Source: a virus (lineage: Duplodnaviria > Heunggongvirae > Uroviricota > Caudoviricetes). Taken from it: 64,000 bases of DNA. The stretch's first letter is position 1, and each line of letters opens with the position of its first letter. Below, in pieces: positions 4,077 to 56,055 of the stretch. The position numbers and the translations under genes are program-made. The notes below the pieces were generated by a model. That model had not been told where the DNA came from, did not search any database, and saw only the letters and a program-made list of their open reading frames with translations. Where the stretch lies: positions 42,433 to 106,432 of the IMG/VR virus record IMGVR_UViG_3300025319_000008. One strand, 5' to 3'.

Positions 4077-4077
4077 T

Positions 4078-8967: not shown

Positions 8968-9102
8968 ACTTTTGAGGTAATATTATGTAAATATGATAAT
9001 TATTTAAGAAAATGAAATAGTTATTATTTTATTAAGATTTATTTTATTTTACAATAAAAAATATTACATTTGTCAACACATAAACAAACTAAAAAATATA
9101 AT

Positions 9103-9792
9103 ATGCAAAACATTATTGAAAAATTTGAAATAGCAGGAAAAAGCGCCAACATAAATAAAAAGCTAATCTCCAGTTCGACCAACAAATTAATTGACCATTC
9201 TATTAAAAATCTATCTCCAAGTGTAATAGAAGAATCAAGTTCTGGACAATTAATATCATATGATGTGTATTCTCGTCTTTTAAAAGATAGAATAATCTAT
9301 TTTTGCCATCCGGTAACTACTGAAACTTCTAATATTGCAATAGCACAAATATTGTTTTTAGAAATGACTGAAGGTAAAAAAGATATTACATTTTATATCA
9401 TGAGTCCGGGCGGGGAAATTGACTCAGGAAGCGCAATTTTAGACACATTCGAGCTTGTTTCGTGTGATATTAAAACGGTTGGAATGGGAGTTGTTGCAAG
9501 TATGGGTACAATGCTTTTATCAAGTGGGACGAAAGGTAAAAGATATGCATTACCAAGTTCAAGAATAATGATGCACGAATTAGCATCTGGATTTGAAGGA
9601 AAAATGAAAGATTTAAAAGTAAGTTATGAACAATGTCAAATAATGGAAAAAAGATTGTATGAAAAACTTTCTAAAAATACAGGACAGGATTATGAAACAA
9701 TATTCAATAAATGTCAAAAAGATTATTGGGTTTCAGCAGAGCAAGCAGTTGGAGAAGGATTAATTGACGAAGTTCTAATAAAAAGAAAATAA
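9103..9792 (+). CDS. clpP: ATP-dependent Clp protease proteolytic subunit
   Basis: YSRLLKDRIIYF; catalytic Ser in GVVASMGT and His in IMMHELASG; ATG at 9103 preferred over the TTG ORF start at 9070. Confidence 0.9.
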   Translation: MQNIIEKFEIAGKSANINKKLISSSTNKLIDHSIKNLSPSVIEESSSGQLISYDVYSRLLKDRIIYFCHPVTTETSNIAIAQILFLEMTEGKKDITFYIMSPGGEIDSGSAILDTFELVSCDIKTVGMGVVASMGTMLLSSGTKGKRYALPSSRIMMHELASGFEGKMKDLKVSYEQCQIMEKRLYEKLSKNTGQDYETIFNKCQKDYWVSAEQAVGEGLIDEVLIKRK

Positions 9793-9958: not shown

Positions 9959-10885
9959 ATGAGAAAGAAATGGACAGAAAAAGAAATTGATTTTTTAATA
10001 GAAAATGTAAAAAAAATCACATTAAATGAAATAGCAGAAAAATTAGAAAAAAAAATAAGTGTAGTTAAATCTAAATTATATAAATTAGGTATATGCACTA
10101 TTAAATGGTCAAAAGATGAGGATGATTTATTACGTGAAAATTTTCCACTTAAACCAACAAGATTATTAATTGAATTATTTAAAAACAGAACTAGGAGTTC
10201 TCTTCTAAATAGAGCAACATTTTTAGGATTGAAGAGAAATAATGAAGCTAGATTTGTTTATAAAAAATATAAATACAATGTTAATCATAATTTTTTTGAT
10301 GATTTTTCACTTGAAAATTGTTATTGGGCTGGTTTTATATCAGCTGATGGATGTGTAAAACCTATTAATTCTTTATTAAGTATAAAATTAAGTAGTAAAG
10401 ATGTTGAGCATTTAGAAGTTTTTAAAAAAACAATAAATTCTAATGCTCCAATATTCATTAGAGATAACAACTCTTTTGGTACTGAACATAAATCAGCAAC
10501 TATAGACATATATTCAAAAAATATAATAAATAAATTAAAAATAAATTTTTTAATTACTAATAAAAAAACATTTACAGCAGTGCCTCCAACAATAAAAAAT
10601 TCAAATCAAAAAATAGCATTTATAATTGGGTTATTAGATGGGGATGGTTCAATATATAAAATTAATAATAATTTAAGAATAACATTTTTAGGCACATTAA
10701 AAATGCTTGAATGGATTAAAGAAACATTAAAAACAACATTATTTGTTGATGTGAATCAAAAAATACATCAAAAAGGTAAAATATATTCTTTTGCTATATC
10801 TAACAAACCAGTATTAAGTTTAATAGAGTGGGTTAAAAAAAATGAAATATATTATTTAAATAGAAAAATTGGAAAATATGTCTGA
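9959..10885 (+). CDS. freestanding LAGLIDADG homing endonuclease with an N-terminal HTH-like DNA-binding region
   Basis: YWAGFISADGCV and IGLLDGDGSI motifs ~100 aa apart; inserted between clpP and dnaJ, overlapping the dnaJ start. Confidence 0.75.
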   Translation: MRKKWTEKEIDFLIENVKKITLNEIAEKLEKKISVVKSKLYKLGICTIKWSKDEDDLLRENFPLKPTRLLIELFKNRTRSSLLNRATFLGLKRNNEARFVYKKYKYNVNHNFFDDFSLENCYWAGFISADGCVKPINSLLSIKLSSKDVEHLEVFKKTINSNAPIFIRDNNSFGTEHKSATIDIYSKNIINKLKINFLITNKKTFTAVPPTIKNSNQKIAFIIGLLDGDGSIYKINNNLRITFLGTLKMLEWIKETLKTTLFVDVNQKIHQKGKIYSFAISNKPVLSLIEWVKKNEIYYLNRKIGKYV

Positions 10886-12011
10886 AAAAGAAAGTCTCTA
10901 TAATATTCTTGAAGTAGACAAAACAGCATCTCAAGAAGAAATAAAACAATCTTATAGAAAATTAGTAAAAAAACATCACCCAGATAAGGGTGGGGATGAA
11001 AATACTTTTAAAAAAATTTCTAACGCATATGATATTTTATCCAACCCAGAAAAGAAAGCTAAATATGAAAACGATGGCATGTTTAATGATGGTGGTTTTG
11101 GATTTAATCCTCACAGTATGGCGGATGAATTATTTAGAAGGCATGCTGAATCATTTGGGTTTAGAGGTGGTAGTAGTAGACATGCTCAACAAACAAAAAC
11201 TAGAAGAGGTGGAGATTTAAAAATAAGAATTTCATTAACTATTCATGAATTAATTACAGGTGCACATAAAAAAGTAAAATTACAAAGAGAAATAAATTGT
11301 CCAGACTGTTCTGGAACTGGTGCTAAAAATAAAGAATCGATAGTAAAATGCAGTGTATGTGATGGTACTGGTATTGTTACAATAAGACAGAATACGCAAA
11401 TGGGAATGATGATTCAACAATACACTTGTCAGCATTGTGGTGGAGAAGGAAAAGAAATTAAAGAAAAATGCAATTCCTGTAAAGGACAAGGGATGATTTC
11501 GAATAGTGATGAAGTAGAATTTGATATTCCAGCCGGTGCAGTAGAAGGAATAAATTTAAACATTAATAACGTTGGAAACGAAGCAAGAGGCGGAGGGAAT
11601 AACGGAAGTCTTATTATTGAAATAACAGAGATTGAACATCCTATTTTTAAAAGAGAAGGCAATAATATTTTAACTGATGTTTTTATTAGTTATTATGATG
11701 CTGTGATTGGGAATGATTCTTTAGAAATAAATACTGTTGATGGAAACGTTAAAGTCAAAATAGAGCCAGGAACAGAGTCTGGCAAAATCCTACGTTTAAA
11801 AGGTAAAGGAATTCCTAATATAAATAATCCTTCTCAAAGAGGCGATCAAATGGTTTATGTAAATATTTTTGTTCCAAAGACATTAACAGAAGAAGAAAGG
11901 AAATCTATTACAGAACTTAAGAATGTTAAATCAGCTGAGCCGGATAGTGAAAAAACACAACATTTAAAAGGTGTTTATTCTCGCATTAGAGAATATGATG
12001 AATTGCATTAA
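10878..12011 (+). CDS. dnaJ: chaperone DnaJ (J domain plus four CxxCxGxG zinc-finger repeats plus C-terminal domain)
   Basis: YNILEV...HHPDKGG (HPD motif); CPDCSGTG, CSVCDGTG, CQHCGGEG, CNSCKGQG; ATG at 10878 (the ORF track start at 10869 is TTG). Confidence 0.9.
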   Translation: MSEKESLYNILEVDKTASQEEIKQSYRKLVKKHHPDKGGDENTFKKISNAYDILSNPEKKAKYENDGMFNDGGFGFNPHSMADELFRRHAESFGFRGGSSRHAQQTKTRRGGDLKIRISLTIHELITGAHKKVKLQREINCPDCSGTGAKNKESIVKCSVCDGTGIVTIRQNTQMGMMIQQYTCQHCGGEGKEIKEKCNSCKGQGMISNSDEVEFDIPAGAVEGINLNINNVGNEARGGGNNGSLIIEITEIEHPIFKREGNNILTDVFISYYDAVIGNDSLEINTVDGNVKVKIEPGTESGKILRLKGKGIPNINNPSQRGDQMVYVNIFVPKTLTEEERKSITELKNVKSAEPDSEKTQHLKGVYSRIREYDELH

Positions 12012-18491: not shown

Positions 18492-19646
18492 ATGTCAAAA
18501 AAATTAACAACAGAAGAGTTTATTGAAAGAGCTAAAATTATACATGTAAACAGAATAACTAATGAATCAAAATATGATTACAGTTTAGTTGAATATAAAA
18601 ATAGCAAAACTAAGATTAAAATAATTTGTAAAGAACATGGTGTTTTTGAGCAAACGCCAAATGATCATTTATCTGGTTGTGGATGTGTTGAATGTTCTGG
18701 ACTCAAAAAATTAACAACCGAAGAATTTATTGAAAAGTCTAACAAAGTTCATAGTAATATATATGATTATTCATTAGTAGAATATTTTAACAATAATACA
18801 AAAGTTAAAATAATATGTAATAATCATGGAGTTTTTGAACAAATTCCAGCAAGTCATTTGGGTGGGCATGGATGTGGTAAGTGTGGCGGAACCGCATTAA
18901 GAAACACGATAGAGTTTATTGAAAAATCTATAATTATTTATGGATATACATATAATTATGAGTTAGTTGAATATGTTAATTCTATAATTAAAGTTAAGAT
19001 AATTTGTAAGAAACATGGTGTTTTTGAGCAATCACCAGATAAACATTTAGCTGGACACCAATGTCCTTTTTGCGGATTTGAAGAAAGTTCCTTAAAAAGA
19101 GCTAATACTTCTGAATATTTTATTGAAAAATCGAAAATTATACACATAAATGAAAAAACATGTGAACCAAAATACGATTATTCAAAAGTTAACTACGTTC
19201 AAAACAAAACTAAGGTAATAGTAATTTGTCCATTACATGGAGATTTTCAAATAACTCCAAGCTCACATTTGAATGGATATGGATGTAAAAAATGTAATTT
19301 TTCAAAAATATCAAAGGGAGAAAAAGGTATAATTGAATTTTTAAAAAAGAATAACATCGAATTTATACATCAACATAAATTTAATGATTGCATAGGAATA
19401 TCAAATAAATTACCATTTGATTTTTATTTACCAAAATACAATACTTGTATAGAATTTGATGGGAGACAGCATTTTGAATCAGTCAAAAAATTTGGAGGAG
19501 AAAAAAATTTTTTGGATATACAAAGAACTGATAACATAAAAAATAAATATTGTTTAAATAACAATATAAAACTTATTAGAATTTCATATTTAAATTTGAA
19601 AAATATAAATGAAATTTTAGAGAAAGAATTCAACTGTATTGAGTAA
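18492..19646 (+). CDS. zinc-ribbon repeat protein with a C-terminal PD-(D/E)XK (Vsr/DUF559-like) endonuclease domain
   Basis: Five ~60-aa repeats of KYDYSLVEY...K.KIICK.HGVFEQ.P..HL.G.GC..C; C-terminal LPFDFYLPKYNTCIEFDGRQHF; paralog at 34194..35321. Confidence 0.65.
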   Translation: MSKKLTTEEFIERAKIIHVNRITNESKYDYSLVEYKNSKTKIKIICKEHGVFEQTPNDHLSGCGCVECSGLKKLTTEEFIEKSNKVHSNIYDYSLVEYFNNNTKVKIICNNHGVFEQIPASHLGGHGCGKCGGTALRNTIEFIEKSIIIYGYTYNYELVEYVNSIIKVKIICKKHGVFEQSPDKHLAGHQCPFCGFEESSLKRANTSEYFIEKSKIIHINEKTCEPKYDYSKVNYVQNKTKVIVICPLHGDFQITPSSHLNGYGCKKCNFSKISKGEKGIIEFLKKNNIEFIHQHKFNDCIGISNKLPFDFYLPKYNTCIEFDGRQHFESVKKFGGEKNFLDIQRTDNIKNKYCLNNNIKLIRISYLNLKNINEILEKEFNCIE

Positions 19647-19649
19647 TGT

Positions 19650-20093
19650 TTAGTTTTTAGTTCCTGGTTCTACGCTTAAATGCGAAAGAGTTATTATATT
19701 ATTTCTCTTTTTAATAAATTCTAATTTATTTAACATCCATTCTAAGGATTTTAAATGAGTGTTTTCTGTTGGTTTTAATAATGCTCTGTGTTGTTCTGTT
19801 GATTCCATAATTTCGCCGTCAAAGGTATATTCCTCATTATTTTCATACCAAATTTTTTCTTTTGAGTCATATAAAAATAAAGGGAACTGTTGGCCATAAC
19901 TTACTGTGATGTAGCTTTTGTCTGGAAAAGATTCACCCCAGCAATGGCTACCTATAAAATTCTCTTTATTGCGAACTTTTTCTAACCCATCCTCATTAGT
20001 AAGTCTTTCTTCGTCAATCATCATTTCATCCATTATACCACATTCAAACAAATGTTTTCTTATGGCCTTTCTTATTTTATTTTCGTTAATCAT
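19650..20093 (-). CDS. hypothetical protein
   Basis: 147-aa ORF. Confidence 0.4.
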   Translation of the reverse strand: MINENKIRKAIRKHLFECGIMDEMMIDEERLTNEDGLEKVRNKENFIGSHCWGESFPDKSYITVSYGQQFPLFLYDSKEKIWYENNEEYTFDGEIMESTEQHRALLKPTENTHLKSLEWMLNKLEFIKKRNNIITLSHLSVEPGTKN

Positions 20094-21787
20094 TTTTTTA
20101 ATTCTTTTAATATTCGTATGTTAACACGTTTCATTATTTCATTTACAATAAAAGATTCAGTAAGTGATTGGTCATCCGGACCTAAATCTTCTATATTTTC
20201 AGGTTCTTCTTCTTTTTCTTCTGGTTCTACTTTGAAAAGATATTTATCAGAAGGTATTGATACTTCTTTGCCGGCATTATCAATTATAATAAAATTATCT
20301 AATCCTTGAGGTTCAAAAAATTCTTTCGGCTCTATTCTTTGTATTGTATATTCTTTTTTGCTTGAAAGATTTTTATATTCTTCTGGATTTATTTTCATGA
20401 GTACAGGAAGATTGGATATTTTAACTTTTTCTCCAACTTGTATTCTTTTTGGAAATGCAATATCTCCTAATGTATCCGAATCAACTCCTTCTTCTTTCTC
20501 TGTTTCTAATGGAACCCATTCCCCTTTTGGATCTCCTGTTGCTATGTCAATTCCTGTTTGCTTAAAATATTCTAAAGGATTTTCTTTTTCTCCTTCTTCT
20601 CCAACTCCTTGTACTGAAAAAGCGTATTTATTATTGGTGAAATTTACTTTTATTCCTGTTTTGTCTTTAATGTATTTTTGAAAAGAGCCATTTTGAACGT
20701 AAAATGTTATAACTTCTTCCATTCTTTTTTTTATTTGTCTCACTGTTCCGGCTGGTTTTCCTAAAATATCAGATATTTCAGATAAAATATGTCCTTGAAA
20801 TAATAATTTTGCTACTTCTAAAAATGAAGGATTTATACCACCGTGTTTTATATTTGATTGTAAACGACTTATAATAAAATTTTGCATTACATCTGATAAT
20901 TCTTTTGCAGCTTCTTTTTGAGAAGTGCTTTTTTGTCCTTCTTCTCCAGTGATTCTATCACTTTTTGTTTGGTCAACATCTTCATCTGAATCTCCAAGTG
21001 GCTCATCTAATGAGCTTCCTTTTAATCCTCCACTTGATTGACCTAATGCTGTTTTTGCATACTTAGATTGAACTTGTGATTTCGCTCTTGAAGTAGCATT
21101 AAATATTATATTAGAAGGAAGTTGTCCTCCTCTACTTGGATTAAAGTTTTCTAAAGAATAATCAAAAGCATCTTCAATAGCACTTGAAACTATTGCTCGT
21201 AAATTCTCACCATCAATTGTCTTTCTGCCGGTTTTTTCAACAAAATTATAAATACCAGCATTTTTAGCAACAATTCTTGAAATTAATGAAGGTCTATTTC
21301 CTCCACTACCTTTTTCAAAAGAAGTAAATTCATCTGGTTGAACCATTGCTATAAATAATACATCTCTAATATTTTTCTTTTCATTTTCAAGAGTGCTATC
21401 ATCTTTATATAATGAAGCTAATACTGTTGTAATGAAATTAAACTGTTTAATCTTATGTCCTTCAGACATTTTGTTATAATTGAAATTATTTCCAAGTCTT
21501 CCAGTTGTTTTTGCTTTTTCTATTAATTCATATAAATCAACTAATTCATCTTCACTAAAATTTTTTGATAATTCATTAATTTTTGCACTTATATTAGAGA
21601 AATCCAAATCCAAATTAGACTCTTCTGGGTTCATCGTATCTACTTGGCCAACGTCTTCTTTGCTGTCTAATTCAGAACTGTCATCAAATTCTTCATCATT
21701 AGCAATTTCTTCTTCTTTCAAGATTTTAAAAGTTCTACTTATGATGAACTTTTTTAAACTTTCAAATGTTAATTTTTTGTTTTCCAT
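20090..21787 (-). CDS. large sigma-70-like protein with a region 4 HTH and a C-terminal extension
   Basis: INPSFLEVAKLLFQGHILSEISDILGKPAGTVRQIKKRMEEV matches sigma-70 region 4.2 (TLEEIG..LGVTRERVRQIE-like); its C-terminal module is paralogous to the upstream gene. Confidence 0.55.
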   Translation of the reverse strand: MENKKLTFESLKKFIISRTFKILKEEEIANDEEFDDSSELDSKEDVGQVDTMNPEESNLDLDFSNISAKINELSKNFSEDELVDLYELIEKAKTTGRLGNNFNYNKMSEGHKIKQFNFITTVLASLYKDDSTLENEKKNIRDVLFIAMVQPDEFTSFEKGSGGNRPSLISRIVAKNAGIYNFVEKTGRKTIDGENLRAIVSSAIEDAFDYSLENFNPSRGGQLPSNIIFNATSRAKSQVQSKYAKTALGQSSGGLKGSSLDEPLGDSDEDVDQTKSDRITGEEGQKSTSQKEAAKELSDVMQNFIISRLQSNIKHGGINPSFLEVAKLLFQGHILSEISDILGKPAGTVRQIKKRMEEVITFYVQNGSFQKYIKDKTGIKVNFTNNKYAFSVQGVGEEGEKENPLEYFKQTGIDIATGDPKGEWVPLETEKEEGVDSDTLGDIAFPKRIQVGEKVKISNLPVLMKINPEEYKNLSSKKEYTIQRIEPKEFFEPQGLDNFIIIDNAGKEVSIPSDKYLFKVEPEEKEEEPENIEDLGPDDQSLTESFIVNEIMKRVNIRILKELKK

Positions 21788-21788
21788 T

Positions 21789-24197
21789 TTATTTATTTGT
21801 TTTTTTAAATCTTTCTACCATAAGCTCTCTTACAACTTTTCTTATATGATTTTCTGATAATTGTGATGACATTTCATAATTTTTAAGTAAATCATTTAAT
21901 AAATCTCTATCTTTCTTTATTGCTGGATTCTCTAACCCTTCAAATCCGAAAAACTTTCTTAATCCCAATCTTAAAGAATTTATAAATTCTAATGTTTTGT
22001 CTGTTAATGATTTTTTTTCTTCTGCAGACTCTGCTGTTTTATATAGAGCTTGTTTTGTTTCTGGATTAAATAAATTTTGAGGCAATTCTATATTTTTTGC
22101 AAAAGCAACTTTAGAAAGTTGATCAATAATTTTTTCTGTATTTCCAACTAATTTCCCACCTGTATCCCATACATAACTAAACGGTACCTCTCTTATTTTT
22201 TGATACTTATTTATAAGTCCACTATCCTTGTATGGGAGAGCAATTTTCCCATTTTCTTTTTCTACTTTTCCACCTTTGTGAGTATAAGGATTATAAGCGT
22301 TTACTATTTTTGGTGTACCATCTACATTTCTAAAATAAACTGTTCTTGTGTATTTTGGAACCATTCTACCATATTGCAACATAAGTCTTAGTGCTTCGAT
22401 TAAAGCATCTTTGTATTTCGTACCTAATTCTTGTGGTAGTGCCGATGTTTTTGAAGTTGATTTAACATATCTATTAGAAAGATTTATTTCTTTTCCAGCA
22501 TCATCAAGTATAGTGTATATATAAACCGTATTCCCGTTTTTATCGTTTTTGCCTGTTGCTTCTTTTTTTGTTACTGTGTATTCTTTTTTCGAATTAAGAT
22601 TTTGAAATATTTCTGGACTTTTTGTTTTCTCCGGGTCTAATAATTCATTAACCCTTTCTAATCTAACTTTCTCTCCAATTTTTAAATCAGTACTTAACAT
22701 TTCAATAGAAATTTCATCAAGAATGTTATCAATTTCAGTTTTTGCTAAACGCATTGCTTCGCTAACAGGAACTCCTTCATACATGGCTTTTTCAGCTATG
22801 GAGCCTTCTCCTGGTTCGTATATTGCTTTAGTTAAATCCTCCGGCTTGTCCTTTGAAACGCTTTTATAAAATTCATTTGGATTTTTCAGAAATCTAGCAC
22901 TTAGAGGAGAAATTTTTCCATCTTCTTCTTTTGCTCCAAAAAGCCCTATAGCATCCATTGCATCCTTAAATGTATATCTGAAAAAGGGTTTTTTTACTAT
23001 TTCACCATCTTTAGTTTTAACTTTAAATGTGAATGGACTAATTGTAACTTCATAATTTCCTTCAATAGCTTTTTCAGGATTTAATTTAGAATCAACAACA
23101 AGAGGAGCAGTTTCTGCAACAAGTCTTCGTTCAACCTCTGTTCTATCCAATACGTAGTCACTTATGCTTCTTAATTGGTCAATTACTTTATGTTTAACAA
23201 CTTGAATAAACCAAGCTCCATAATTATTATATTTTTCCTGAGAATATTGTTTTTCTTTTGTTTGGTCTATAGCATGGTTTATACCATTTTCTGCAAATAC
23301 AATGAATTGACTATCCTTTGGATTTTTTTTCCTTTTAAGTGTTTGTGCAAGTATTGGTATTACAGCTTTTCCATAAAAATCTCTAATAATATGTTCAGCA
23401 TTAGCTATTACTAAATTTTTATATGGCCAGTTACCTAATAAAATCTCTTCTATATCAATATTTTCATCACCATTTGCTGGTAATGGCCTACCTGATAACA
23501 TTCTTTGTAAAAATTCAAGTTGTTGTTTTCCTAAATCTGAAATCCCAACTAATTTTTTGCCATTTTCTTCAAATGTATGATAGCTAATTATGTTTTTATC
23601 TTTTATTTTTGGTTGCCATTTTGCTGATTGTACATTACCACCTTCTTGTCCAAATGTAACGGCGCTTCTTTTTGTTTTTTTATCTTTTTCTATAATTGCA
23701 TCAATTTCTTCTTGGCTCATTCCAGCTTTTTTAAGACGACTAATTTCAGCTGGACTAATAATTGGAGTTACTAATCTTCCATATTCTCTTGAAGCTCCTG
23801 GTAGTTTTTGTATAGGCTTCTTTTCGATAACAGTTCCTTCTACACCACCTTCTTCTTCTGGCCTTGCACCAAGTGTTTTTGGTTTGTATTCTCCTGAAAG
23901 TTTTAAATTCGCAGCTTCATATTGATTTATATTATTCAATACCATGGATGCTTTCATGTCTTTCGTCAGTACTCCTTCGGATTTCCCTTTTATTTCTAAA
24001 GCTCTTCCTTCATCACCCATTAAATCTCCAATATCTCCAAAAATATCATCATCATCTTCTTTTAAAAGTTTTTTTGGCTCTGTTTTTTTTGAGTTTATAA
24101 TGGTAGAATCGCTTTCATTAATGGTGTTTTGTGAAACTCCAGCTAATTTTGACATTCTTTGCAACTCATGAAGAAGATTTTCGTTTAATAAGGTCAT
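21789..24197 (-). CDS. large sigma-70-like protein with region 2 signature, acidic N-terminus and long C-terminus
   Basis: ENGINHAIDQTKEKQYSQEKYNNYGAWFIQVVKHKVIDQLRS aligns with sigma-70 region 2.2-2.4 (EGNIGLMKAVDKF...YATWWIRQAITRSIADQAR); shares the KEYT..DDAGKE[IV] module with 20090..21787. Confidence 0.5.
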   Translation of the reverse strand: MTLLNENLLHELQRMSKLAGVSQNTINESDSTIINSKKTEPKKLLKEDDDDIFGDIGDLMGDEGRALEIKGKSEGVLTKDMKASMVLNNINQYEAANLKLSGEYKPKTLGARPEEEGGVEGTVIEKKPIQKLPGASREYGRLVTPIISPAEISRLKKAGMSQEEIDAIIEKDKKTKRSAVTFGQEGGNVQSAKWQPKIKDKNIISYHTFEENGKKLVGISDLGKQQLEFLQRMLSGRPLPANGDENIDIEEILLGNWPYKNLVIANAEHIIRDFYGKAVIPILAQTLKRKKNPKDSQFIVFAENGINHAIDQTKEKQYSQEKYNNYGAWFIQVVKHKVIDQLRSISDYVLDRTEVERRLVAETAPLVVDSKLNPEKAIEGNYEVTISPFTFKVKTKDGEIVKKPFFRYTFKDAMDAIGLFGAKEEDGKISPLSARFLKNPNEFYKSVSKDKPEDLTKAIYEPGEGSIAEKAMYEGVPVSEAMRLAKTEIDNILDEISIEMLSTDLKIGEKVRLERVNELLDPEKTKSPEIFQNLNSKKEYTVTKKEATGKNDKNGNTVYIYTILDDAGKEINLSNRYVKSTSKTSALPQELGTKYKDALIEALRLMLQYGRMVPKYTRTVYFRNVDGTPKIVNAYNPYTHKGGKVEKENGKIALPYKDSGLINKYQKIREVPFSYVWDTGGKLVGNTEKIIDQLSKVAFAKNIELPQNLFNPETKQALYKTAESAEEKKSLTDKTLEFINSLRLGLRKFFGFEGLENPAIKKDRDLLNDLLKNYEMSSQLSENHIRKVVRELMVERFKKTNK

Positions 24198-24320: not shown

Positions 24321-26378
24321 ATGGTAATGAAACAACATTCATTTTTGGTAGATATCGGCAAAACTATGGTCGATACAAATAAAATAAGCTCAGAAGGAAA
24401 AGACAGTCAAAGAATGTACTGCCATTGCGGTAATAAAAAAGAGCTAAAAAGTAAAGCGAGAAGATTGCTTGTAAAAAAACACGACACTACTGTTGAAGAC
24501 AAGCATAGTATTGAAACAATTAAATGTGATAAGTGCGGAAGCGTTTATGACAGTAAAAATCGTTTATTTCTTATTATTCCAGATGAAGATGAAATTTATA
24601 AAGTTTCATTTTTAGTAGAAGAAAAAGGAAAAACAATAACTCTTTTAAGACAAAAAACATTTGTTAGATACGATTCTTCTACTGATAAATTAAATGATAA
24701 TATTGTCAGAACCGATTCAATTAAATTTGATAGAAGCAAAAACAAAACTGAAATTTTCTTAGAAAAGCCATTACTTGATAAAATATCAGTAAATAATAAG
24801 CAGAATGATGTGAATAACATTACGGAAGAAGTAGGTCTTTCAAAAATAGGAAGATTAGAACATTTTTTCCAATTTTATGATTTTGCTTCTTATGGTGGTC
24901 TTATAAATATATTCAATTTTTTTAACAAAATTGATGTTGTAGTAACTGACCTTGACGATATTAAGAAATTGATTCCTCAAATAAGTTATGCTTATAATAA
25001 TCATGATGTTTTTGAAAAAACAGATGAAATAACCGGAGAGTCAATAACTTATAATAAAGTTGATAGCGGTTTTGGAGACGGAAAAAAAGAAGAGAAAAAA
25101 TTAAATATAGGTGGGTATTTATCCAGATATGTTGAATTGTCTAAAATTTTTCTTTGTGTATCTGACTTCCAGAGTATTTCAACAATATTACTTACTAAAG
25201 GACAAGTGTTTTTTAAAGAATTTATCCACAGTAAAAACATTTTATCTTCTCAAGTTTATGAATTGTTTGAAGCAACATCTCCTACTAAAATATTGGAAAT
25301 TTCTATGAATTGCGATATTAACGGTATGTTAAAAGGAAGTGGAGATAATGATACTAAGGAAGTTGCTAAAAAAGTCGTTAAAATATCAAAAACCATAGAA
25401 GATAGTCCTAACTATTTAAAGGTTAGTCCTTTGATTTATAAACACATAAGCACTCCACAGGATATGGAAATTTTGCTTAGTATATATCGTAAAAAATATA
25501 TTTCCAAAACTGATATTGAAACTTTGTTTCAAAGTTATGATACTGAGCGTATTTATAAATTCTACAGAAATTTAGAAAAACAAAGAATTCAAGATAATGC
25601 CAGTTTTACAATCAAAAACATTAAACACATCTTAGATAGAAATATAGATGATGTTGTAAAAGGTGGCAATTCTGATTATTTGCATTTGTATACAGATACT
25701 ATTAACTCAATGAGGCTGTTGGAGCTTTCTGATAATTATATTTATCGTATTAAAAGTAATGTCGAGTTAAAAACTATACATGATGACCTTGCAGCGAGAT
25801 ATGGAGCTATTAAAGATGCTAAAAAAGCAGAATTTTATAAAAAAGCAGCTAAGGAATTGTCAAACATAAATACAATTGTTGGCGATGTTGAATTGACAGT
25901 TATTCCAACTCTTGAGGACTTAAATAAAGAAGGTATGCTTATGAATCATTGTATTTATACATACCTTGATCGAATTGTTAATAGAGATTATATGGCTGTC
26001 CATGTACAACATATAATTTCAAATGAAAGAGCAACTTTGGGTTTATATCGTAAAAATGGAGGCCTTGAATTTGATCAGTTAAAAGGTTATCGTAACTCAA
26101 GAGCCTCAAGAGAGTTAATTGAAGGAGTACTGGAGTTTATACAAATTAACAAAATACAATCTTCTTCCAGAAACAGTGATTTAACACCTTCTGCCGGAAG
26201 CATAACCAGAATGCATGATTATTTAAGTGACGAAGAAGTCATGAAAATAAGAAAAGAAAGAGAAAAAAAGGAAAATATTGAGATGGAAAAAGCAAAATCA
26301 GAAGGAAAAGAGTATGTTCCTAAGTATTCAAAGTCACATCAAAAAAATAAAAAAGGATTTTTTGGATTATTTGCTTAA
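24321..26378 (+). CDS. large protein with N-terminal zinc ribbons and a C-terminal domain resembling PcfJ-like proteins
   Basis: CHCG...CDKCGS; C-terminal EGMLMNHCIYTYLDRIVNRDYMAVHV...LGLYRKNGGLEF; the PcfJ assignment is from memory of the family and is low confidence. Confidence 0.4.
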   Translation: MVMKQHSFLVDIGKTMVDTNKISSEGKDSQRMYCHCGNKKELKSKARRLLVKKHDTTVEDKHSIETIKCDKCGSVYDSKNRLFLIIPDEDEIYKVSFLVEEKGKTITLLRQKTFVRYDSSTDKLNDNIVRTDSIKFDRSKNKTEIFLEKPLLDKISVNNKQNDVNNITEEVGLSKIGRLEHFFQFYDFASYGGLINIFNFFNKIDVVVTDLDDIKKLIPQISYAYNNHDVFEKTDEITGESITYNKVDSGFGDGKKEEKKLNIGGYLSRYVELSKIFLCVSDFQSISTILLTKGQVFFKEFIHSKNILSSQVYELFEATSPTKILEISMNCDINGMLKGSGDNDTKEVAKKVVKISKTIEDSPNYLKVSPLIYKHISTPQDMEILLSIYRKKYISKTDIETLFQSYDTERIYKFYRNLEKQRIQDNASFTIKNIKHILDRNIDDVVKGGNSDYLHLYTDTINSMRLLELSDNYIYRIKSNVELKTIHDDLAARYGAIKDAKKAEFYKKAAKELSNINTIVGDVELTVIPTLEDLNKEGMLMNHCIYTYLDRIVNRDYMAVHVQHIISNERATLGLYRKNGGLEFDQLKGYRNSRASRELIEGVLEFIQINKIQSSSRNSDLTPSAGSITRMHDYLSDEEVMKIRKEREKKENIEMEKAKSEGKEYVPKYSKSHQKNKKGFFGLFA

Positions 26379-30265: not shown

Positions 30266-30712
30266 ATGTCAAATGCTATTTTGAAAGAAAAGCAAGAAAA
30301 AGTTAAGGATACACCATGGACAAACCTTGGGATAAAGGTGGACTTGTGTTCATTTTTGACGAGAAAAGTGTTGTTTGAGAAATACATTTCTCAAAAAGCC
30401 AAGGAAACAGAAATGAAAGAATTTTTTATTTCGAAAATTGATGGGTGTGAATTATATACAAACTCAGAGTACAAAGATTACATATTTTACATTAAAAATA
30501 TCAATGGAAATAATGAGATTTTAATGGAAAAATATGAAAAAAACAAGACGTTTTATATAAAATATACCAACTTTTGGTCAGTTTTTGAGAGCTTGTACCT
30601 ACTTGAATACTCTGAGATTCAATCATTTACACAGATTACCCTTGAAGATGGTCTAAAATCTAACGGTTATAAAACTTCCATTGTTGCCGAAGAGTTTGGT
30701 TACCAGCCTTGA
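30266..30712 (+). CDS. hypothetical protein; its 3' end runs into the first CRISPR-like repeat
   Basis: 148-aa ORF; the last ~24 codons are repeat plus spacer sequence. Confidence 0.4.
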   Translation: MSNAILKEKQEKVKDTPWTNLGIKVDLCSFLTRKVLFEKYISQKAKETEMKEFFISKIDGCELYTNSEYKDYIFYIKNINGNNEILMEKYEKNKTFYIKYTNFWSVFESLYLLEYSEIQSFTQITLEDGLKSNGYKTSIVAEEFGYQP

Positions 30713-30875
30713 AGATGGTCTAAAATCTAACGGTTATAAAACAATACCAGGGAAATATACCACTGCCAACTTCCTTGAAGATGGTCTAAAATCTAACGGT
30801 TATAAAACATGGAGCAATGGCGAAACAAACCAAATTATACCTTGAAGATGGTCTAAAATCTAACGGTTATAAAAC
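30640..30875 (-). CRISPR. orphan CRISPR-like mini-array: four identical 36-nt repeats and three unique 30-31 nt spacers
   Basis: CCTTGAAGATGGTCTAAAATCTAACGGTTATAAAAC at 30640, 30707, 30773 and 30840; spacers at 30676-30706, 30743-30772 and 30809-30839 share no similarity; the AT-rich leader-like 200 nt at 30876-31070 suggests minus-strand transcription, giving the repeat as GTTTTATAACCGTTAGATTTTAGACCATCTTCAAGG. Confidence 0.6.
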
Positions 30876-31072
30876 TATTATAACATTTCCTGTAAAAGAC
30901 GTTTGTATGTTATTTTTTGTTAAAAAATATTGCAATTAATATTATAACAGGAATCCATTTCCAAAAAATATATGATTCTGTTTTAATTTCTATTATTCTG
31001 CAACAAAAAACACTTCCTAAATAAGAAGCAATAAGATAAGTTAAAATAATATTCTCATTCATCGTTTTAGAT

Positions 31073-31534
31073 TTAGAAATTGAATTCCACCGGTACACCT
31101 GGAAATTTGCTTAATTGTAAAAGAAGCGTTGCAGCTTTGTTTCTTAATCCTAAATCGGTTTTACGACATTCTATTTTGACACACCACTCTGTTAGTGTTA
31201 CTGAAATTTCTCCACCACCATATATTTCAGTATAACCTTTTTCTGTTTTAGATTTTCTTTTTTTCAGTTTATCTAAATAGAAAAAAGCTTCTTTTAGTTG
31301 AATTTTTTGGTCTTTATATTTTTGACTTCCATCATCAATTATTTGTAAAAGTTTTTTATTAGTAGGATTTTCCATTCTTCCAGATTTATCATATGTACTA
31401 TAGTCGATACCGGCTATTTTTGTTTTAGTATCTTCGTGTTTAAAAATACTAATATCAACAGAATGTGGCTCCGGAAGAAGTTTTAATATCTTCTCAATAA
31501 TTTCTTTTCTGATTTTTGGGACAGTTTTCACCAT
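31073..31534 (-). CDS. hypothetical protein
   Basis: ORF track 31073..31627 overlaps the topA end; the internal Met at 31534 (MVKTVP) is the likely start. Confidence 0.4.
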   Translation of the reverse strand: MVKTVPKIRKEIIEKILKLLPEPHSVDISIFKHEDTKTKIAGIDYSTYDKSGRMENPTNKKLLQIIDDGSQKYKDQKIQLKEAFFYLDKLKKRKSKTEKGYTEIYGGGEISVTLTEWCVKIECRKTDLGLRNKAATLLLQLSKFPGVPVEFNF

Positions 31535-31553
31535 AATGTTATAATTTAAATAT

Positions 31554-33959
31554 TTATTCTTTCTTTTTGAATTTAGTGAATTTTTTCTTCTTCGGTGAAT
31601 TTTTAGATTCTTTAATAATTTCTTCACAATCTTTTAAAGTTAAAGTATCAGCTTCTTTTCCTAGAGGAATTTTATGGTTGCCTGTCTTAGATTTTATGTA
31701 CGCTCCGAATTTACCATTAAGTACGCTTATGCCTTCTTTTTTAAATTCTTTAATGGTATTACTACTCTTTGCTGCACTTTTCTCTTCAAAGATTTCTATT
31801 GCACGTTTTAAAGATATTGTGGAAGGGTCTTCTTCTTTAGAAATTGAACTGTAGATTTGACCGACTTTGACGTATGGGCCGAAGCGTCCTATTGCAATTG
31901 AAACGTCTTCACCTTTATGTTTACCCATATTTCTTGGCCATATAAGAAGTTCTAATGCCTCTTCTATAGTGATGTTTTCTATTGTTTGTCCTTCTTTTAA
32001 TTTGGCGAATTTTGGCTTTTCTTCATCACTTTTTTTGTCAACACTCTCTCCCATTTGTATCATTGGTCCGAATTTACCTAAACGAGCGTAGATTATTTTG
32101 CCTGTTTTTGGGTCTTTGCCAATTTCTCTTATTCCGGCTTTTCCTTCTTCGCCTGCAGCTTCTTTTAATGTCTTGCTGAATGGTTCATAAAACTCTCCAA
32201 TCATCTGTTGCCACTCTTTATTTCCTTCTGCTATCTCATCAAGTTTTTCTTCAGTCTCTGCAGTAAATTTATAATCCATGATGTCCGGGAAATGTTTTTT
32301 TAGATAGTCAACTACCACTCCGGCAACTTCTGTTGGAACTAATTTTCCTTTTTCTCCTCCAAATTTATCTATTACTTCACTTTCTTCTATTTTATTGTTT
32401 GTTGATGATAGAGTTAATGTTTGGATTTTACGTTCCTTTGGTTCAATATCTTTTTTTTCAACGTATCCACGGTCTTGGATTGTTTGGATTATCGTAGCGT
32501 AGGTTGATGGCCTGCCAATTTGAAGCTCCTCCATGGATTTAACAAGTCCAGGTTCATTAAATCTTGGTACTGGTTTTGAAAATGATTGTGATGAAACTAA
32601 TTCTTTATAATAAAGTTTATCACCTTTTTCTAAAGGTGGAAGGATTTTAGAATCACTATCTTCATTTTCATTATCTTCTTTATTATCATCTGTGTCGTTG
32701 TATACTTTTAAAAACCCATCAAATTTTATAATTGTCCCTTTAGTTACAAATTGTTCTTTTATGTTTTGTGTGCCAATAGTAATTTTTGTAAGTTCTGTAA
32801 CTGCATCACTCATTTGTGAAGCCAAAGCTCTTTTATATATTAAATCATAAAGTCTAACTTCATCAGAAGAGCCAGATATTGTTTCTTGTTCGAAATGAGA
32901 ACAACGGATTCCTTCATGAGCTTCCTGACTTCCTTTGTTTTTGTTCTTATATTGCTTGTTGCATAAATATTTATCTCCGTATTTTGATTTTATTTGTGTG
33001 GAAATCTCTTTAATAGAATCTTCTGAAAGCATTACAGAATCAGTTCTGTGATAAGAAATAAACCCCTTGGAAAAAAGCGATTGAGCAGTATCCATACATC
33101 TTTTAACGCTAAATCCTAATTTATTTCCAGCAGTTTGTTGTAATGTACTTGTTGTAAATGGTGCTGAAGCTGTACGTTTTCCAATTTTTGTTTCTTTATT
33201 GTTAACTATAAATTCTTTTCCAATACATTCATTTAAAAATTTATGTGCAGTTTGCTTATCTTTAAATCTTTTATCTAAAATAGATTTTATTGAAACTCTT
33301 TTTTTTGTTTCAAAAGCTCCAGTAGTTTTAAAATCTACATCCGATTCAAAAGATTTTATTTCCCTTTCTTTTTCAACTATCAGTCTAACGGAGCTACTTT
33401 GCACCCTTCCAGCACTTAAATTAGGGGCTACTTTTTTCCAGAGCAACCCACTTAAATCAAACCCTACAATTCTATCCAAAACACGTCTTGCTTGTTGAGA
33501 ATTAGTTAAATTTTTATCAATTATTCCAGGATTATCTATTGCGTTTTTTACTGCTGTTTTTGTTATCTCATTAAATACAGCACGTTTAGTTGTTTCTAAT
33601 GGAAGGTCTAAAGTTATAGCCACTGAATGAGCTATAAATGAGCCTTCTCGGTCTAAGTCAGAAGCAAGAATAAATTCGTATCCATTTTTCTTAAATTCTT
33701 TTAATGTTTTAACAACATCTTTCTTGCTTTCAGATACAATGTAATGTGGTTCAAAATTATTTTTTTTATCCACTCCTTTTGCACCTTTATCTAATTCCAA
33801 GATATGTCCCACCGAAGCTATACAATCATAATTATGATATCCTATTTCTTTTAATATCTCTTTTATCTTTTTTATTTTTGATGGAGACTCTACCACCATA
33901 ACGTATTTCTGATTATCGGAACCTATTTTTTTCTTTGCCATTTTACAAATGTAATACAT
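31554..33959 (-). CDS. topA: DNA topoisomerase I (type IA)
   Basis: N-terminal TOPRIM VMVVESPSKIKKI; the catalytic region has the family-typical Tyr segment; 801 aa; alternative start at 33941 (MAKKK). Confidence 0.9.
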   Translation of the reverse strand: MYYICKMAKKKIGSDNQKYVMVVESPSKIKKIKEILKEIGYHNYDCIASVGHILELDKGAKGVDKKNNFEPHYIVSESKKDVVKTLKEFKKNGYEFILASDLDREGSFIAHSVAITLDLPLETTKRAVFNEITKTAVKNAIDNPGIIDKNLTNSQQARRVLDRIVGFDLSGLLWKKVAPNLSAGRVQSSSVRLIVEKEREIKSFESDVDFKTTGAFETKKRVSIKSILDKRFKDKQTAHKFLNECIGKEFIVNNKETKIGKRTASAPFTTSTLQQTAGNKLGFSVKRCMDTAQSLFSKGFISYHRTDSVMLSEDSIKEISTQIKSKYGDKYLCNKQYKNKNKGSQEAHEGIRCSHFEQETISGSSDEVRLYDLIYKRALASQMSDAVTELTKITIGTQNIKEQFVTKGTIIKFDGFLKVYNDTDDNKEDNENEDSDSKILPPLEKGDKLYYKELVSSQSFSKPVPRFNEPGLVKSMEELQIGRPSTYATIIQTIQDRGYVEKKDIEPKERKIQTLTLSSTNNKIEESEVIDKFGGEKGKLVPTEVAGVVVDYLKKHFPDIMDYKFTAETEEKLDEIAEGNKEWQQMIGEFYEPFSKTLKEAAGEEGKAGIREIGKDPKTGKIIYARLGKFGPMIQMGESVDKKSDEEKPKFAKLKEGQTIENITIEEALELLIWPRNMGKHKGEDVSIAIGRFGPYVKVGQIYSSISKEEDPSTISLKRAIEIFEEKSAAKSSNTIKEFKKEGISVLNGKFGAYIKSKTGNHKIPLGKEADTLTLKDCEEIIKESKNSPKKKKFTKFKKKE

Positions 33960-34053: not shown

Positions 34054-34197
34054 ATGGCTACGAAAACTAAAACATTCACATTACCAGAAGAAATTTTGGA
34101 AAAACTTGCTTCATATAGCGAGGAAAGCTTAATTCCTCAATCGGCATTAATTGCAAAGTTATTAAAAGAATTTTTTGAAAAAGAAAATAAAAAATGA
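34054..34197 (+). CDS. small ribbon-helix-helix DNA-binding protein
   Basis: 47-aa ORF not in the ORF track; KTFTLPEEILEKLASY...SALIAKLLKEFF; its stop overlaps the nuclease start (ATGA). Confidence 0.45.
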   Translation: MATKTKTFTLPEEILEKLASYSEESLIPQSALIAKLLKEFFEKENKK

Positions 34198-35321
34198 GTG
34201 GGAAAGCTATAAGTATTGAAAAATTTATTTTTAATGCAAAACAAATTCATGGAGAAAGGTACGATTATTCAAAATTTGAATATGTTAATTCCTCAGTAAA
34301 ATCCACAATTATATGTGAGAAACATGGCGAATTTTTACAATCTCCAAGAAATCACATGAAAGGATATAATTGTAAGAAATGTATGTACGAAGGAGAAAGA
34401 ACATTACCAAGTAAACATACTTTAGAATCATTTATTATTAAATCAAATGAAGTTCATGATAATAAATACGATTATTCAAAAGTGGTATATAAAAATAATA
34501 AACAACCAATTATTATAATTTGTCCAGAGCATGGAGAATTTAATCAAAGACCTGATAGTCATTTAAGTGGAAGGGGTTGTATTTATTGTTCAGGAACGTA
34601 TCAATATGCAAAAGAAGATTTTATAAAAAAATCTAATGAAAAACATAATAATAAATACGATTATTCTGAAGTTTTATACACAAAAAATGATAATAAAGTA
34701 ACAATAATTTGTAATAAACATGGAAAGTTCAGTCAATTAGCCAAAGACCATTTAAGAGGACGCGGATGTGACATATGTAGTGGTGGATATGTTGGAACTA
34801 AAGAAATATTTTTGGCAAAATCTTTTGAAGTTCATGGAAATACTTATAATTATGATAATGTAAAATATGTAAATAACCAAACAAAAGTAGATATAATTTG
34901 TAATAAACATGGTATTTTCAAACAAAGGCCAGCAATGCATTTATTTGGAAATGGTTGTCCAAAGTGTTCAAATTTTTCAAAAGGAGAAATTAAAATTACT
35001 AAAATTTTAGAAGAAAAAAATATAATATTTACATATCAAAAAACTTTTGATGATTGTAAAAATGTTTTTAAATTACCTTTCGATTTTTATTTACCAGATT
35101 ATAATACTTGTGTAGAATTTGATGGAGCTCAACATTTTAAAGCTTTTAAATACTTTGGTGGTGAAAAAACATTTAAAGCAAGGCAACTAAACGACCAAAT
35201 AAAAAACGAATACTGCAAAAACAATAACATTCCATTATTAAGAATTCCTTACTGGGACTTTAAGAACATTGAGACTATATTGACTGATTATTTAAAGTCA
35301 ATCCTTATCAACTCTAATTAA
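34194..35321 (+). CDS. zinc-ribbon repeat protein with a C-terminal PD-(D/E)XK (Vsr/DUF559-like) endonuclease domain; paralog of 18492..19646
   Basis: Five repeats (C..HG.F.Q.P..H..G.GC..C) plus LPFDFYLPDYNTCVEFDGAQHF. Confidence 0.65.
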   Translation: MSGKAISIEKFIFNAKQIHGERYDYSKFEYVNSSVKSTIICEKHGEFLQSPRNHMKGYNCKKCMYEGERTLPSKHTLESFIIKSNEVHDNKYDYSKVVYKNNKQPIIIICPEHGEFNQRPDSHLSGRGCIYCSGTYQYAKEDFIKKSNEKHNNKYDYSEVLYTKNDNKVTIICNKHGKFSQLAKDHLRGRGCDICSGGYVGTKEIFLAKSFEVHGNTYNYDNVKYVNNQTKVDIICNKHGIFKQRPAMHLFGNGCPKCSNFSKGEIKITKILEEKNIIFTYQKTFDDCKNVFKLPFDFYLPDYNTCVEFDGAQHFKAFKYFGGEKTFKARQLNDQIKNEYCKNNNIPLLRIPYWDFKNIETILTDYLKSILINSN

Positions 35322-39632: not shown

Positions 39633-39740
39633 AATATTAATGTTTTATAAATTAAACGAAAAAGTTTATTGTTTGTTATATTTATAATTTTAACAAATGT
39701 AGGGAGGAAAATTTGAATTAAAAACACCTCCCTACAATGA

Positions 39741-48072: not shown

Positions 48073-48171
48073 TGTATTTAATTAAACGAAGATAATAAAA
48101 TTTTGTTATTAATTGTTTGAAATGTAAGAAAAATATGTTTTATTTACAGAATCAATAAATTAATAGTGTAA

Positions 48172-51569: not shown

Positions 51570-51692
51570 TATTTAAACGAAAAACATGTTAAAATGTTTA
51601 AATCTTCTCGATTAATACAATTCTCTCAATCTTAGTAAATTCAAAAAACTGATTTCTGAATTTTTCTTGAGCTTTTTCAAATTCTTCTCTTG

Positions 51693-54830: not shown

Positions 54831-55916
54831 TTATTTTTTACGAGATTTCCAACCAAATTCTGTATAAATTTTTTCTTTCCATTCTAAATTAGAACGTAAA
54901 ATTTCATAGTCTCTTTTGTTCTTTGTCCTGAATTCAAAAAGAGTTTTATGATTTTTTGCAATATTGTAAATTTTTTCAAAAGTCCAAATTTCTTTCAGTA
55001 ATTTCATATGAGAACAAATTTCTTCAAGCCATTTATTTTTACAAGCATAATCATGTGCTCGTGGATATTTTTGAATAAATTCTGTTCTGCTTTCACATTG
55101 AAGAGCTACATTTATACAATTTTCTTTAATATTCCAATAGCCATTTGGTTTTTTACGTCTAACCATGTGTTTACAACAATCATCTCCCCAGTTATTTCTT
55201 ATGACGGCACTATATGCAGAATTATTTTTTATTTTAAATTCAGAACGAGATTCGTATTTTTTAGCTTCTTCTGTACATTTTTCTTTTGTCCATTTTCTTG
55301 GAGCACTTCCAAGGGAACCAGTTTTTGCTATATTTAAAATAACATATCCTTCTTTTTCATATTTTTCTTTAAAAACACCTTCCTGTATTGAGGCATTTTC
55401 GTTATCCAAATAATCTGTTAATTTTATAAATTTTGGTTTTAACTCTGTTCTATTAATGTGTTTATAAACAATGCATCTATTATCAGTTAAATGTTCATCA
55501 AATCTTTTATTTGGATTTCCAGTTAAACCAACATAAATATGATTATCTGCAAAAACAGCTACATAAATAAGTCTTTTATATAAATCTCCAAGAATTTCCA
55601 TATGTGAACAACATTCTTCAACCCATTTATTTCTATAAACAGAATCATATGCTCCACTGGATTTTTTCGCAAAATCTGTTTTTGTTCTATATTTTAATGC
55701 CTCTTCTAAACATTTTTCTTTTGTCCAATATCCGTTTGGTTTCTTTTTAGTAATCATATGTTTACAAATATCATTTAACCAATTGTTTTTTAAAGATTTA
55801 TCATAAGCTCCATTTGAACCTCTTTCAAAATTGCTTCTTGAGCTGTATTTTAATGCTTCTTTCTCACAATTTTCTTTTGTCCAATAACCCATTGGTTTTC
55901 TTTCTTTATTTTTCAT
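54831..55916 (-). CDS. GIY-YIG nuclease flanked by four ~48-aa Trp/Cys repeats
   Basis: Central LIYVAVFADNHIYVGLTGNPNKRFDEH; repeats of KPNGYWTKEKC.EEALKY..R..F....GAY....N.W....C.HM; ATG at 55916 (the ORF track start at 55925 is TTG). Confidence 0.6.
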   Translation of the reverse strand: MKNKERKPMGYWTKENCEKEALKYSSRSNFERGSNGAYDKSLKNNWLNDICKHMITKKKPNGYWTKEKCLEEALKYRTKTDFAKKSSGAYDSVYRNKWVEECCSHMEILGDLYKRLIYVAVFADNHIYVGLTGNPNKRFDEHLTDNRCIVYKHINRTELKPKFIKLTDYLDNENASIQEGVFKEKYEKEGYVILNIAKTGSLGSAPRKWTKEKCTEEAKKYESRSEFKIKNNSAYSAVIRNNWGDDCCKHMVRRKKPNGYWNIKENCINVALQCESRTEFIQKYPRAHDYACKNKWLEEICSHMKLLKEIWTFEKIYNIAKNHKTLFEFRTKNKRDYEILRSNLEWKEKIYTEFGWKSRKK

Positions 55917-56055
55917 TTTTTCCAATGTATTGCAATATTAACCATTCTATTAATTGTGATTTATTAATAGCTCTTTCTTCACAAAAATTATCAAACTCCT
56001 TTCTAAGTTCACTAGATAATGTTAGTGGAAATTGTACTCTTTTATCTGTTTTCAT
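55906..56055 (-). CDS. small ribbon-helix-helix DNA-binding protein
   Basis: 49-aa ORF not in the ORF track: MKTDKRVQFPLTLSSELRKEFDNFCEERAINKSQLIEWLILQYIGKNEK; overlaps the GIY-YIG start. Confidence 0.45.
   Translation of the reverse strand: MKTDKRVQFPLTLSSELRKEFDNFCEERAINKSQLIEWLILQYIGKNEK

Follow-up and report, generated by a model that had tools for sequence, protein, structure and literature searches.

Repeats of clustered regularly interspaced short palindromic repeat (CRISPR) arrays are normally considered non-coding, as is the leader beside them, and an array that overlaps a gene is often dismissed by array finders as a false positive. We describe a CRISPR-like array whose repeat is also the last 36 nt of a conserved protein-coding sequence. 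It lies in a 64,000-nt stretch of a Caudoviricetes virus (IMG/VR record IMGVR_UViG_3300025319_000008, positions 42,433 to 106,432; hereafter the window), and related genes, each followed by an array of its own, are found elsewhere in the same genome and beyond it. We use the term ‘cassette’ for such a gene together with its array, and give positions from the first letter of the window unless another record is named.

The source genome is that of the huge phage RIF_PHAGE_CU_29_17 (NCBI CACVIJ010000001.1, GCA_902731165.1; 503,412 bp, hereafter the 503-kb contig), as shown by a protein of that contig that matches the Cas14K1 sequence in Al-Shayeb et al. 2020 at 100% identity; window position p corresponds to CACVIJ010000001.1 position 437463 - p. 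Table S1 of that study (PMC7162821) lists the phage as coming from Rifle sediment, with Bacteroidetes as predicted host phylum, and as CRISPR-Cas positive (Cas1 Y, Cas2 Y, interference ‘cas14K’, type V). Compact arrays of phages, and RIF_PHAGE_CU_29_17 as a CRISPR-bearing phage, are already known. The window array resembles the compact arrays of huge phages in being a short phage array without adjacent effector or adaptation genes (the median in that paper is six repeats), but gene-end repeats and multiple paralogous gene-plus-array cassettes are not described there.

Virus-borne mini-CRISPR arrays (Medvedeva et al. 2019, PMC6858448; PMC11656645) are similar in being viral, with few spacers and no cas gene nearby. 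Their repeats are identical to those of the host and their spacers target related viruses, whereas here neither was found and the repeat is templated on a viral gene. RNA anti-CRISPRs (Racrs) and solitary repeat units (Camara-Wilpert et al. 2023, PMC10651486) are phage repeat units without cas genes, and an array-less allele of the present locus likewise has a single unit. Racrs, however, are non-coding mimics of host repeats, whereas the repeats here are coding, cassette-specific and accompanied by spacers, and no host counterpart was found for them.

New CRISPR loci can arise, it has been proposed, when spacers are integrated non-canonically (Nivala 2018, cited in PMC6698737). In these neo-CRISPR loci (Nivala, Shipman and Church 2018), as here, the repeat duplicates a pre-existing non-CRISPR sequence at the integration site. 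Here, in contrast, that site is set by a conserved codon position in a gene family, and the arrays recur in many paralogues and in distant relatives. Neo-CRISPR integrations are reportedly rare and have been seen mainly in experiments. The omega-RNAs of TnpB and IscB (IS200/IS605) are long, structured and single-copy; they overlap the 3′ end of a protein gene and then run into the guide, and their partner is a nuclease of ~400 aa. The cassettes share with omega-RNA genes the placement of an RNA element at the 3′ end of a coding gene, directly before sequence of guide length, but their protein has 105-148 aa and no nuclease signature, and their repeat is unstructured and arrayed. The gene-anchored, self-templated architecture and its breadth appear to be new, being absent from the text of PMC7162821 and from a 2024 review (PMC11656645).

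The window array consists of four exact + strand copies of the 36-nt repeat CCTTGAAGATGGTCTAAAATCTAACGGTTATAAAAC, with periods of 67, 66 and 67 nt. Its features, with those of the gene and flank that adjoin it, are as follows.

30266-30712, + strand: cassette gene, an open reading frame (ORF) of 148 aa; its conserved core ends ...LEDGLKSNGYKT at ~30676 in the alignment of homologues P0001-P0017.
30640-30675, + strand: repeat 1, the third base of a Thr codon and the last 35 nt of conserved coding sequence (L-E-D-G-L-K-S-N-G-Y-K-T).
30676-30706, + strand: spacer 1, 31 nt, GC content (GC) 0.45.
30707-30742, + strand: repeat 2, exact copy.
30743-30772, + strand: spacer 2, 30 nt, GC 0.40.
30773-30808, + strand: repeat 3, exact copy, with a single A-to-C change in assembly L005.
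30809-30839, + strand: spacer 3, 31 nt, GC 0.35.
30840-30875, + strand: repeat 4, gene-distal; the sole copy in the array-less allele, where it is joined directly to the gene.
30876-30939, + strand: displaced 3′ tail of the original ORF; the array-less allele (L052) reads from repeat 4 into ...IITFPVKDVCMLFFVKKYCN and to TAA at 30937-30939, as in the C-terminus of P0001.
30940-31072, no strand: AT-rich space between the array (+) and a convergent gene at 31073-31627 (-); the remainder of a leader proposed earlier.

No further copy of CCTTGAAGATGGTCTAAAATCTAACGGTTATAAAAC was found in the window at up to 3 mismatches (chance expectation 0.00). The three spacers are mutually unrelated, their similarity being no greater than that of shuffled sequences; all three have higher GC than the window as a whole (0.288). 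The array thus has what CRISPR arrays have in general, namely direct repeats of 23-55 nt that are nearly identical and alternate with unique spacers of about the same length. Independent assemblies L001-L006 carry the identical array with the identical three spacers, and it is therefore not an assembly artefact; several ENA contigs that encode the product of the cassette ORF also all have the same array and spacers. No cas gene was found among the ~40 ORFs of the window with Pfam, PHROGs, NCBIfam and PADLOC. In all of this (exact repeats, unrelated and GC-richer spacers of 30-31 nt that look foreign, absence of cas genes from the 64 kb) a prediction made earlier from the letters of the window, hereafter the original prediction, is borne out. 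The array is genuine and CRISPR-like in its anatomy, yet it differs from an ordinary orphan array that has an AT-rich leader.

What sets it apart is the relation of the repeat to the gene. The original prediction had noticed that repeat 1 overlaps ORF 30266-30712; the overlap is correct, but it is not incidental, because the repeat is the conserved last 12 codons of the gene. The 148-aa product has homologues at 60-98% identity, all of which end in the repeat-encoded peptide (LEDGLKSNGYKT, LEELLKLQGYKT, LLDSLNSKGYKT etc.); past it they diverge, and several read through 2-4 more copies at 22-residue spacing. In the window, spacer 1 and the first bases of repeat 2 supply the last 11 codons of the ORF, which ends with a TGA at 30710-30712. 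Downstream of every homologous gene lies an array that repeats the last 36 nt of that very gene exactly, in constant codon register (variants A-G). There are at least five cassettes on the 503-kb contig, with each of the repeats A-E matching its own gene.

Cassette A: the window.
Cassette C: locus L007, record ~136 kb.
Cassette E: locus L038, record ~117 kb.
Cassettes D and B: locus L041, record ~94 and ~90 kb.

A second contig, of 212,632 bp, is collinear with the 503-kb contig and has cassette C together with F, G and more paralogues, some of them in tandem. Among paralogues the gene body has a ratio of nonsynonymous to synonymous substitution rates (dN/dS) of 0.2-0.4; the cassette gene is real and under purifying selection. 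The repeat variants are conserved at first and second codon positions and vary at third positions (Gly is GGT, GGG or GGC), and the repeat therefore evolves as coding sequence.

That each paralogue has its cognate repeat, much as Rep proteins are paired with iterons, could mean that the cassette protein binds the 36-bp repeats as iterons, operators or centromere-like sites, with the AT-rich flank serving as an unwinding element in the manner of the lambda ori within the O gene. The place of the window array agrees with this, since its neighbourhood is a replication gene cluster (SSB, DnaB/RecA-like ATPase, topoisomerase I). The other cassettes, however, lie in unrelated settings, namely baseplate genes, DNA polymerase and clusters of small early-type genes. 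Iterons are also short (~17-22 bp), imperfect and phased, whereas these repeats are exact over 36 bp and spaced at 65-69 bp with no helical phasing. Unrelated, GC-richer inserts are not what duplication and later drift would produce at a genome GC of 29%, and no process but spacer integration is known to us that sets exact copies around unique inserts of fixed length. Protein-binding sites are therefore a very unlikely explanation.

The arrays also have a polarity. Arrays B and G each have a degenerate fifth repeat, and array C has an A-type fourth repeat after three C-type repeats on the gene side; in all three the in-gene repeat is identical to its neighbours. Since the degenerate or odd repeat stands at the gene-distal end, the growing end, judged as is usual for CRISPR arrays, appears to be the gene. 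This pattern in the repeats favours the gene body as functional leader and the + strand as the strand of the array. The growing end of a CRISPR array is usually a non-coding AT-rich leader; here it abuts coding sequence under purifying selection. A consensus scan of 30940-31072 for promoters and terminators gave no signal above shuffles, a scan that was uninformative, and the repeat RNA folds no better than shuffles on either strand.

A model that follows the original prediction has the opposite orientation: an orphan mini-array with an AT-rich leader at 30876-31070 and transcription on the - strand, whose repeat (GTTTTATAACC...) would mimic a host class 2 array so that host Cas proteins are used, its overlap with the ORF being accidental. 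The 36-nt repeats, the spacers of 30-31 nt and the lack of a cas gene in the window are what such an array would have, and virus-borne mini-arrays that exploit host systems are known (PMC11656645; PMC7162821). The leader and the orientation are not supported, however, since the degenerate repeats are on the side of the proposed leader, contrary to what is expected next to a leader, and the first 64 nt of that leader are the displaced ORF tail. An accidental overlap is also at odds with a repeat that is the conserved gene end in every paralogue and in distant homologues. Nor was a host repeat recovered: scans of IMG/VR, 185,579 species genomes and JGI metagenomes for the exact 36-mer were negative. 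There are at least five repeat variants in one genome, with only 14 of 36 positions common to the wider family, and these therefore cannot all mimic one host repeat. The assignment to type II or V rests on repeat length; no Rfam family matched, and no anti-repeat was found in the window or around cas14K. We regard this explanation as quite unlikely.

A degenerate three-unit pattern of the family recovers every family array. Its sole match in the species genomes was a type-II-looking array (GTTTGAGAGCAATGTAAATTCATAGGGTTATAAAGC) in a Lachnospiraceae metagenome-assembled genome from gut; the similarity of that array beyond the positions fixed by the pattern is at chance, it is unrelated, and it was not accepted as pointing to a host. 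A resemblance of repeat F to Cas13b direct repeats is likewise given no weight. CRISPR-DR62 of Rfam has a weak match at 31001-31037 (+), with 26 bits against a gathering threshold of 45, E 0.7 and a single copy, and is taken as chance.

Across 11 arrays the unit lengths are 65-69 nt; 22 of 36 units have 66 nt, and 14 of 36 are out of frame. The unit lengths are ruler-like, regardless of reading frame. This bears on whether the array could be a coding tandem repeat and a false-positive CRISPR call, made of translated 22-residue units or kept as a store of alternative C-terminal tails that are exchanged by recombination. Arrays C, F, L029 and L048, whose period is 66 nt, do stay in frame throughout, and several units are read through in many proteins of the family; diverged L029 units keep L-E-x-x-h-K-x-x-x-Y-T-P with some synonymous changes, and units are both deleted and duplicated. 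The window periods of 67, 66 and 67 nt, the ORF stop within repeat 2 and the frame-breaking lengths of 14 of the 36 units are hard to reconcile with translated units, and the in-frame cases are about as frequent as chance would give for a modal spacer of 30 nt. Duplication would moreover copy the linkers along with the repeats, whereas the linkers are unrelated and the repeats exact. On this evidence a coding tandem repeat is most improbable.

The units are unstable. In the array-less allele L052, from another sample, both flanks are 100% identical to those in the window and exactly 200 nt (3 units) are absent, leaving a single repeat from which the ORF reads on to the TAA at 30937-30939. This allele is accounted for more simply by recombination between repeats than by three separate gains. 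Array D has a duplicated spacer-repeat unit in L041 (10435-10632) and in L043 that is not present in L042 (4299-4400); this is evidence of unequal recombination between repeats, an instability like that in L052.

We consider it probable (roughly 0.6) that these are CRISPR-type arrays built by a spacer integrase, seeded on the 3′ end of the gene and read on the + strand. As in a neo-CRISPR locus, the repeat duplicates pre-existing local sequence, as the gene-specific repeats indicate, and the unexpanded allele L052 has a single copy. Exact repeats within an array, set around unrelated inserts (29-34 nt across arrays), point to integration rather than tandem duplication. To our knowledge, Cas1-Cas2 integration is the only mechanism that duplicates a target of fixed length around a unique insert of ~30 nt. 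In the proposed mechanism, a spacer integrase of Cas1-Cas2 type would cut at the junction of the gene body and its last 36 nt, a foreign fragment of ~30 nt would be inserted, and gap repair would duplicate the 36 nt, so that every new repeat would be templated on the gene end with the gene body acting as leader. Gene and array would be co-transcribed from the + strand, and the repeat-spacer RNAs would serve an RNA-guided effector in trans, either the phage’s own TnpB/Cas12f-like Cas14K (~46 kb away) or a host effector, directed at the host or at rival elements. Guide function, effector and protein role are among the inferred parts of this scheme.

The candidate effector Cas14K1 (P0166, 403 aa) falls in the TnpB family in NCBIfam and in Cas12f in PADLOC. 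Its gene is at L049 10001-11212 (record 359344-360555), ~46 kb past the array and ~13 kb past the 3′ end of the window, and stands alone and inverted among opposite-strand genes, as an insertion of insertion-sequence type would; a 52-aa ORF precedes it. The Cas14 of RIF_PHAGE_CU_29_17 is described as being without a catalytic residue (PMC7162821).

Over all arrays A-G we collected 22 distinct spacers, none of them common to paralogous cassettes. Their mean GC is 0.381, against 0.288 for the window, a value reached by 0 of 20,000 random sets of window segments; with GC well above that of the genome, the spacers look foreign. No spacer matched elsewhere in the ~145 kb (29%) of the phage genome that was covered, and for the 13 spacers of arrays A-E zero self-matches would have a probability of ~0.01 if they were self-derived. 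Spacer content also turns over between cassettes, each locus of the repeat family having its own spacer set. Arrays A and B have unrelated spacers while their repeats are the same at all but 1 of 36 bases, although their gene bodies show a proportion of synonymous differences (pS) of 0.46. One spacer of RIF_PHAGE_CU_29_17 is reported to match a class II tRNA synthetase of the host, the array that holds it not being specified (PMC7162821).

Several results weigh against integrase-built guide arrays. Searches of INPHARED phages, plasmids and the loci examined gave no protospacer for any spacer, and in IMG/VR the five spacers searched matched only their own arrays; targeting of related viruses, typical of virus-borne mini-arrays, was accordingly not seen in these collections. 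A spacer search of the Al-Shayeb 2020 supplements likewise returned only the arrays themselves. Cassette A has the same three spacers in every assembly that carries it, so no ongoing acquisition was observed. Cas1 and Cas2 were not seen in ~145 kb (~29%) of the genome, and their presence rests on the supplementary table; the precomputed Pfam annotation of L001, L007, L038 and L041 contains no cas gene. There is no array within 2-3 kb of the Cas14K gene and no repeat of the family type in its 21-kb locus. Duplex energies of the repeat with sequence around cas14K are no better than for shuffled sequence, giving no clear anti-repeat there, and the window has no partial reverse-complement match to the repeat. 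Against Rfam CRISPR-DR models the repeats gave no match, whether the gathering threshold was applied or E-values were relaxed to 10 (window array) and to 1 (three paralogous loci). Finally, the coding-like variation of the repeat between cassettes is hard to fit to a single sequence-specific effector or trans-activating CRISPR RNA (tracrRNA) for all arrays.

The lack of detectable spacer targets is what would be expected of a decoy or sink, in which the gene end mimics a leader-repeat junction or the repeat of a CRISPR RNA (crRNA) and thereby soaks up host Cas proteins or diverts the spacer integrase of the host to phage DNA, the spacers being scars without guide function. Solitary repeat units and mini-arrays of phages can act as RNA anti-CRISPRs (PMC10651486), the array-less allele has just one in-gene repeat, and the arrays are short and collapse readily. 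A mimic should, however, track the host repeat, whereas these repeats drift as coding sequence, and no host repeat that they could mimic was found in the 185,579 species genomes. Scars of infection should often derive from abundant phage DNA, and none does so in the ~145 kb covered. That many divergent paralogues and distant members of the family retain arrays suggests, moreover, that these are more than scars. We hold a decoy or sink to be unlikely.

The breadth of the family was measured with a profile search of 1.84 billion cluster representatives, in which the cassette protein family comprises 503 clusters at E<=1e-3 and 74 at E<=1e-10. It has no match in Pfam, PHROGs, NCBIfam or PADLOC, and a broad family search of IMG/VR returned only the RIF_PHAGE_CU_29_17 lineage. 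Among representatives of 100-260 aa, 39 of 145 repeat their own C-terminal 12-mer in frame, 21-23 residues further on, and in 20 of these 39 the second copy is identical at 12 of 12 residues. Because proteins reveal in-frame arrays only, the true share of array-bearing members should be higher. At the DNA level, the distant members L047 and L048 have arrays with repeats of their own (GGTAGAAGAACACTTCAAACTGAGACCTGTTACAAC and ATTAGAAGAGCATTTAAAAAATAATGAATATACAAC).

The small protein and its gene-terminal array might together form a self-contained phage module that has gone unrecognised, the protein being a new CRISPR-associated factor; we regard this as doubtful. The protein would then recruit a spacer integrase to the end of its own gene, or bind RNA and use the repeat-spacer 3′ untranslated region (UTR) as a source of guides. 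If so, the same 36 nt would encode both the repeat and the C-terminal helix, which would co-evolve; the cassettes would be a new CRISPR-like class and a living example of arrays and leaders arising from a gene.

As it stands, a conserved gene end appears as the template repeat of at least five cassettes in one huge phage and within a family of ~500 clusters, and the finding defines an abundant phage protein family with a built-in, testable link to nucleic acid. If the arrays are built by an integrase, then spacer integrases can be aimed at coding sequence, a repeat can drift in the manner of codons, and arrays can be born and lost at gene ends; this would bear on the origin of new CRISPR loci and on how guides are organised in phages that have Cas1-Cas2 or TnpB-like effectors.

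Some further observations concern the cassettes. In L045, inside a tandem cluster of five cassette paralogues, small ORFs (3743-4156, 4138-4359, 5016-5399 and 7116-7445) end in or contain TRKVL[IF]EK, the N-terminal helix motif of the cassette family, and otherwise have no obvious similarity to the family; they may be gene fragments or mark a recombination hot spot. PcfJ-like proteins recur near cassettes (window 24321-26378 (+); L007 803-1537), and in the metagenomic protein P0095 a PcfJ-like domain is fused to a cassette-family domain. The motif TTCGTTTAA occurs a few to ~20 nt upstream of start codons, with 5 copies in the window against 1.6 expected (sites include 39652-39660(-), 48082-48090(-) and 51573-51581(-)), and also immediately before cassette genes B, C, D, E and F (L041, L007, L038, L016); it is probably a phage promoter or 5′-UTR element. 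Cassette A is without it and abuts the gene upstream (stop 30263, start 30266).

Elsewhere in the window, two paralogous genes for homing endonucleases of HNH/DUF723 type are at 18492-19646 (+) and 34194-35321 (+), and a GIY-YIG gene is at 54831-55925 (-). LAGLIDADG domains are found at 9959-10885 and within the dUTPase ORF at 4499-5857, where the domain may be an intein or a fusion. Two adjacent large proteins, of 565 aa (20090-21787, -) and 802 aa (21789-24197, -), belong to no family of Pfam, PHROGs, NCBIfam or PADLOC; the only signal for the pair is a sub-threshold match of the 565-aa protein to sigma-70 region 4. The phage also encodes a ClpB-like AAA+ chaperone (5965-7995), a ClpP protease (9070-9792) and a full-length DnaJ (10869-12011), as well as an ADP-ribosyltransferase of ART-PolyVal type (1581-2744) and a protein of the dCMP/cytidine deaminase family (3342-4076).

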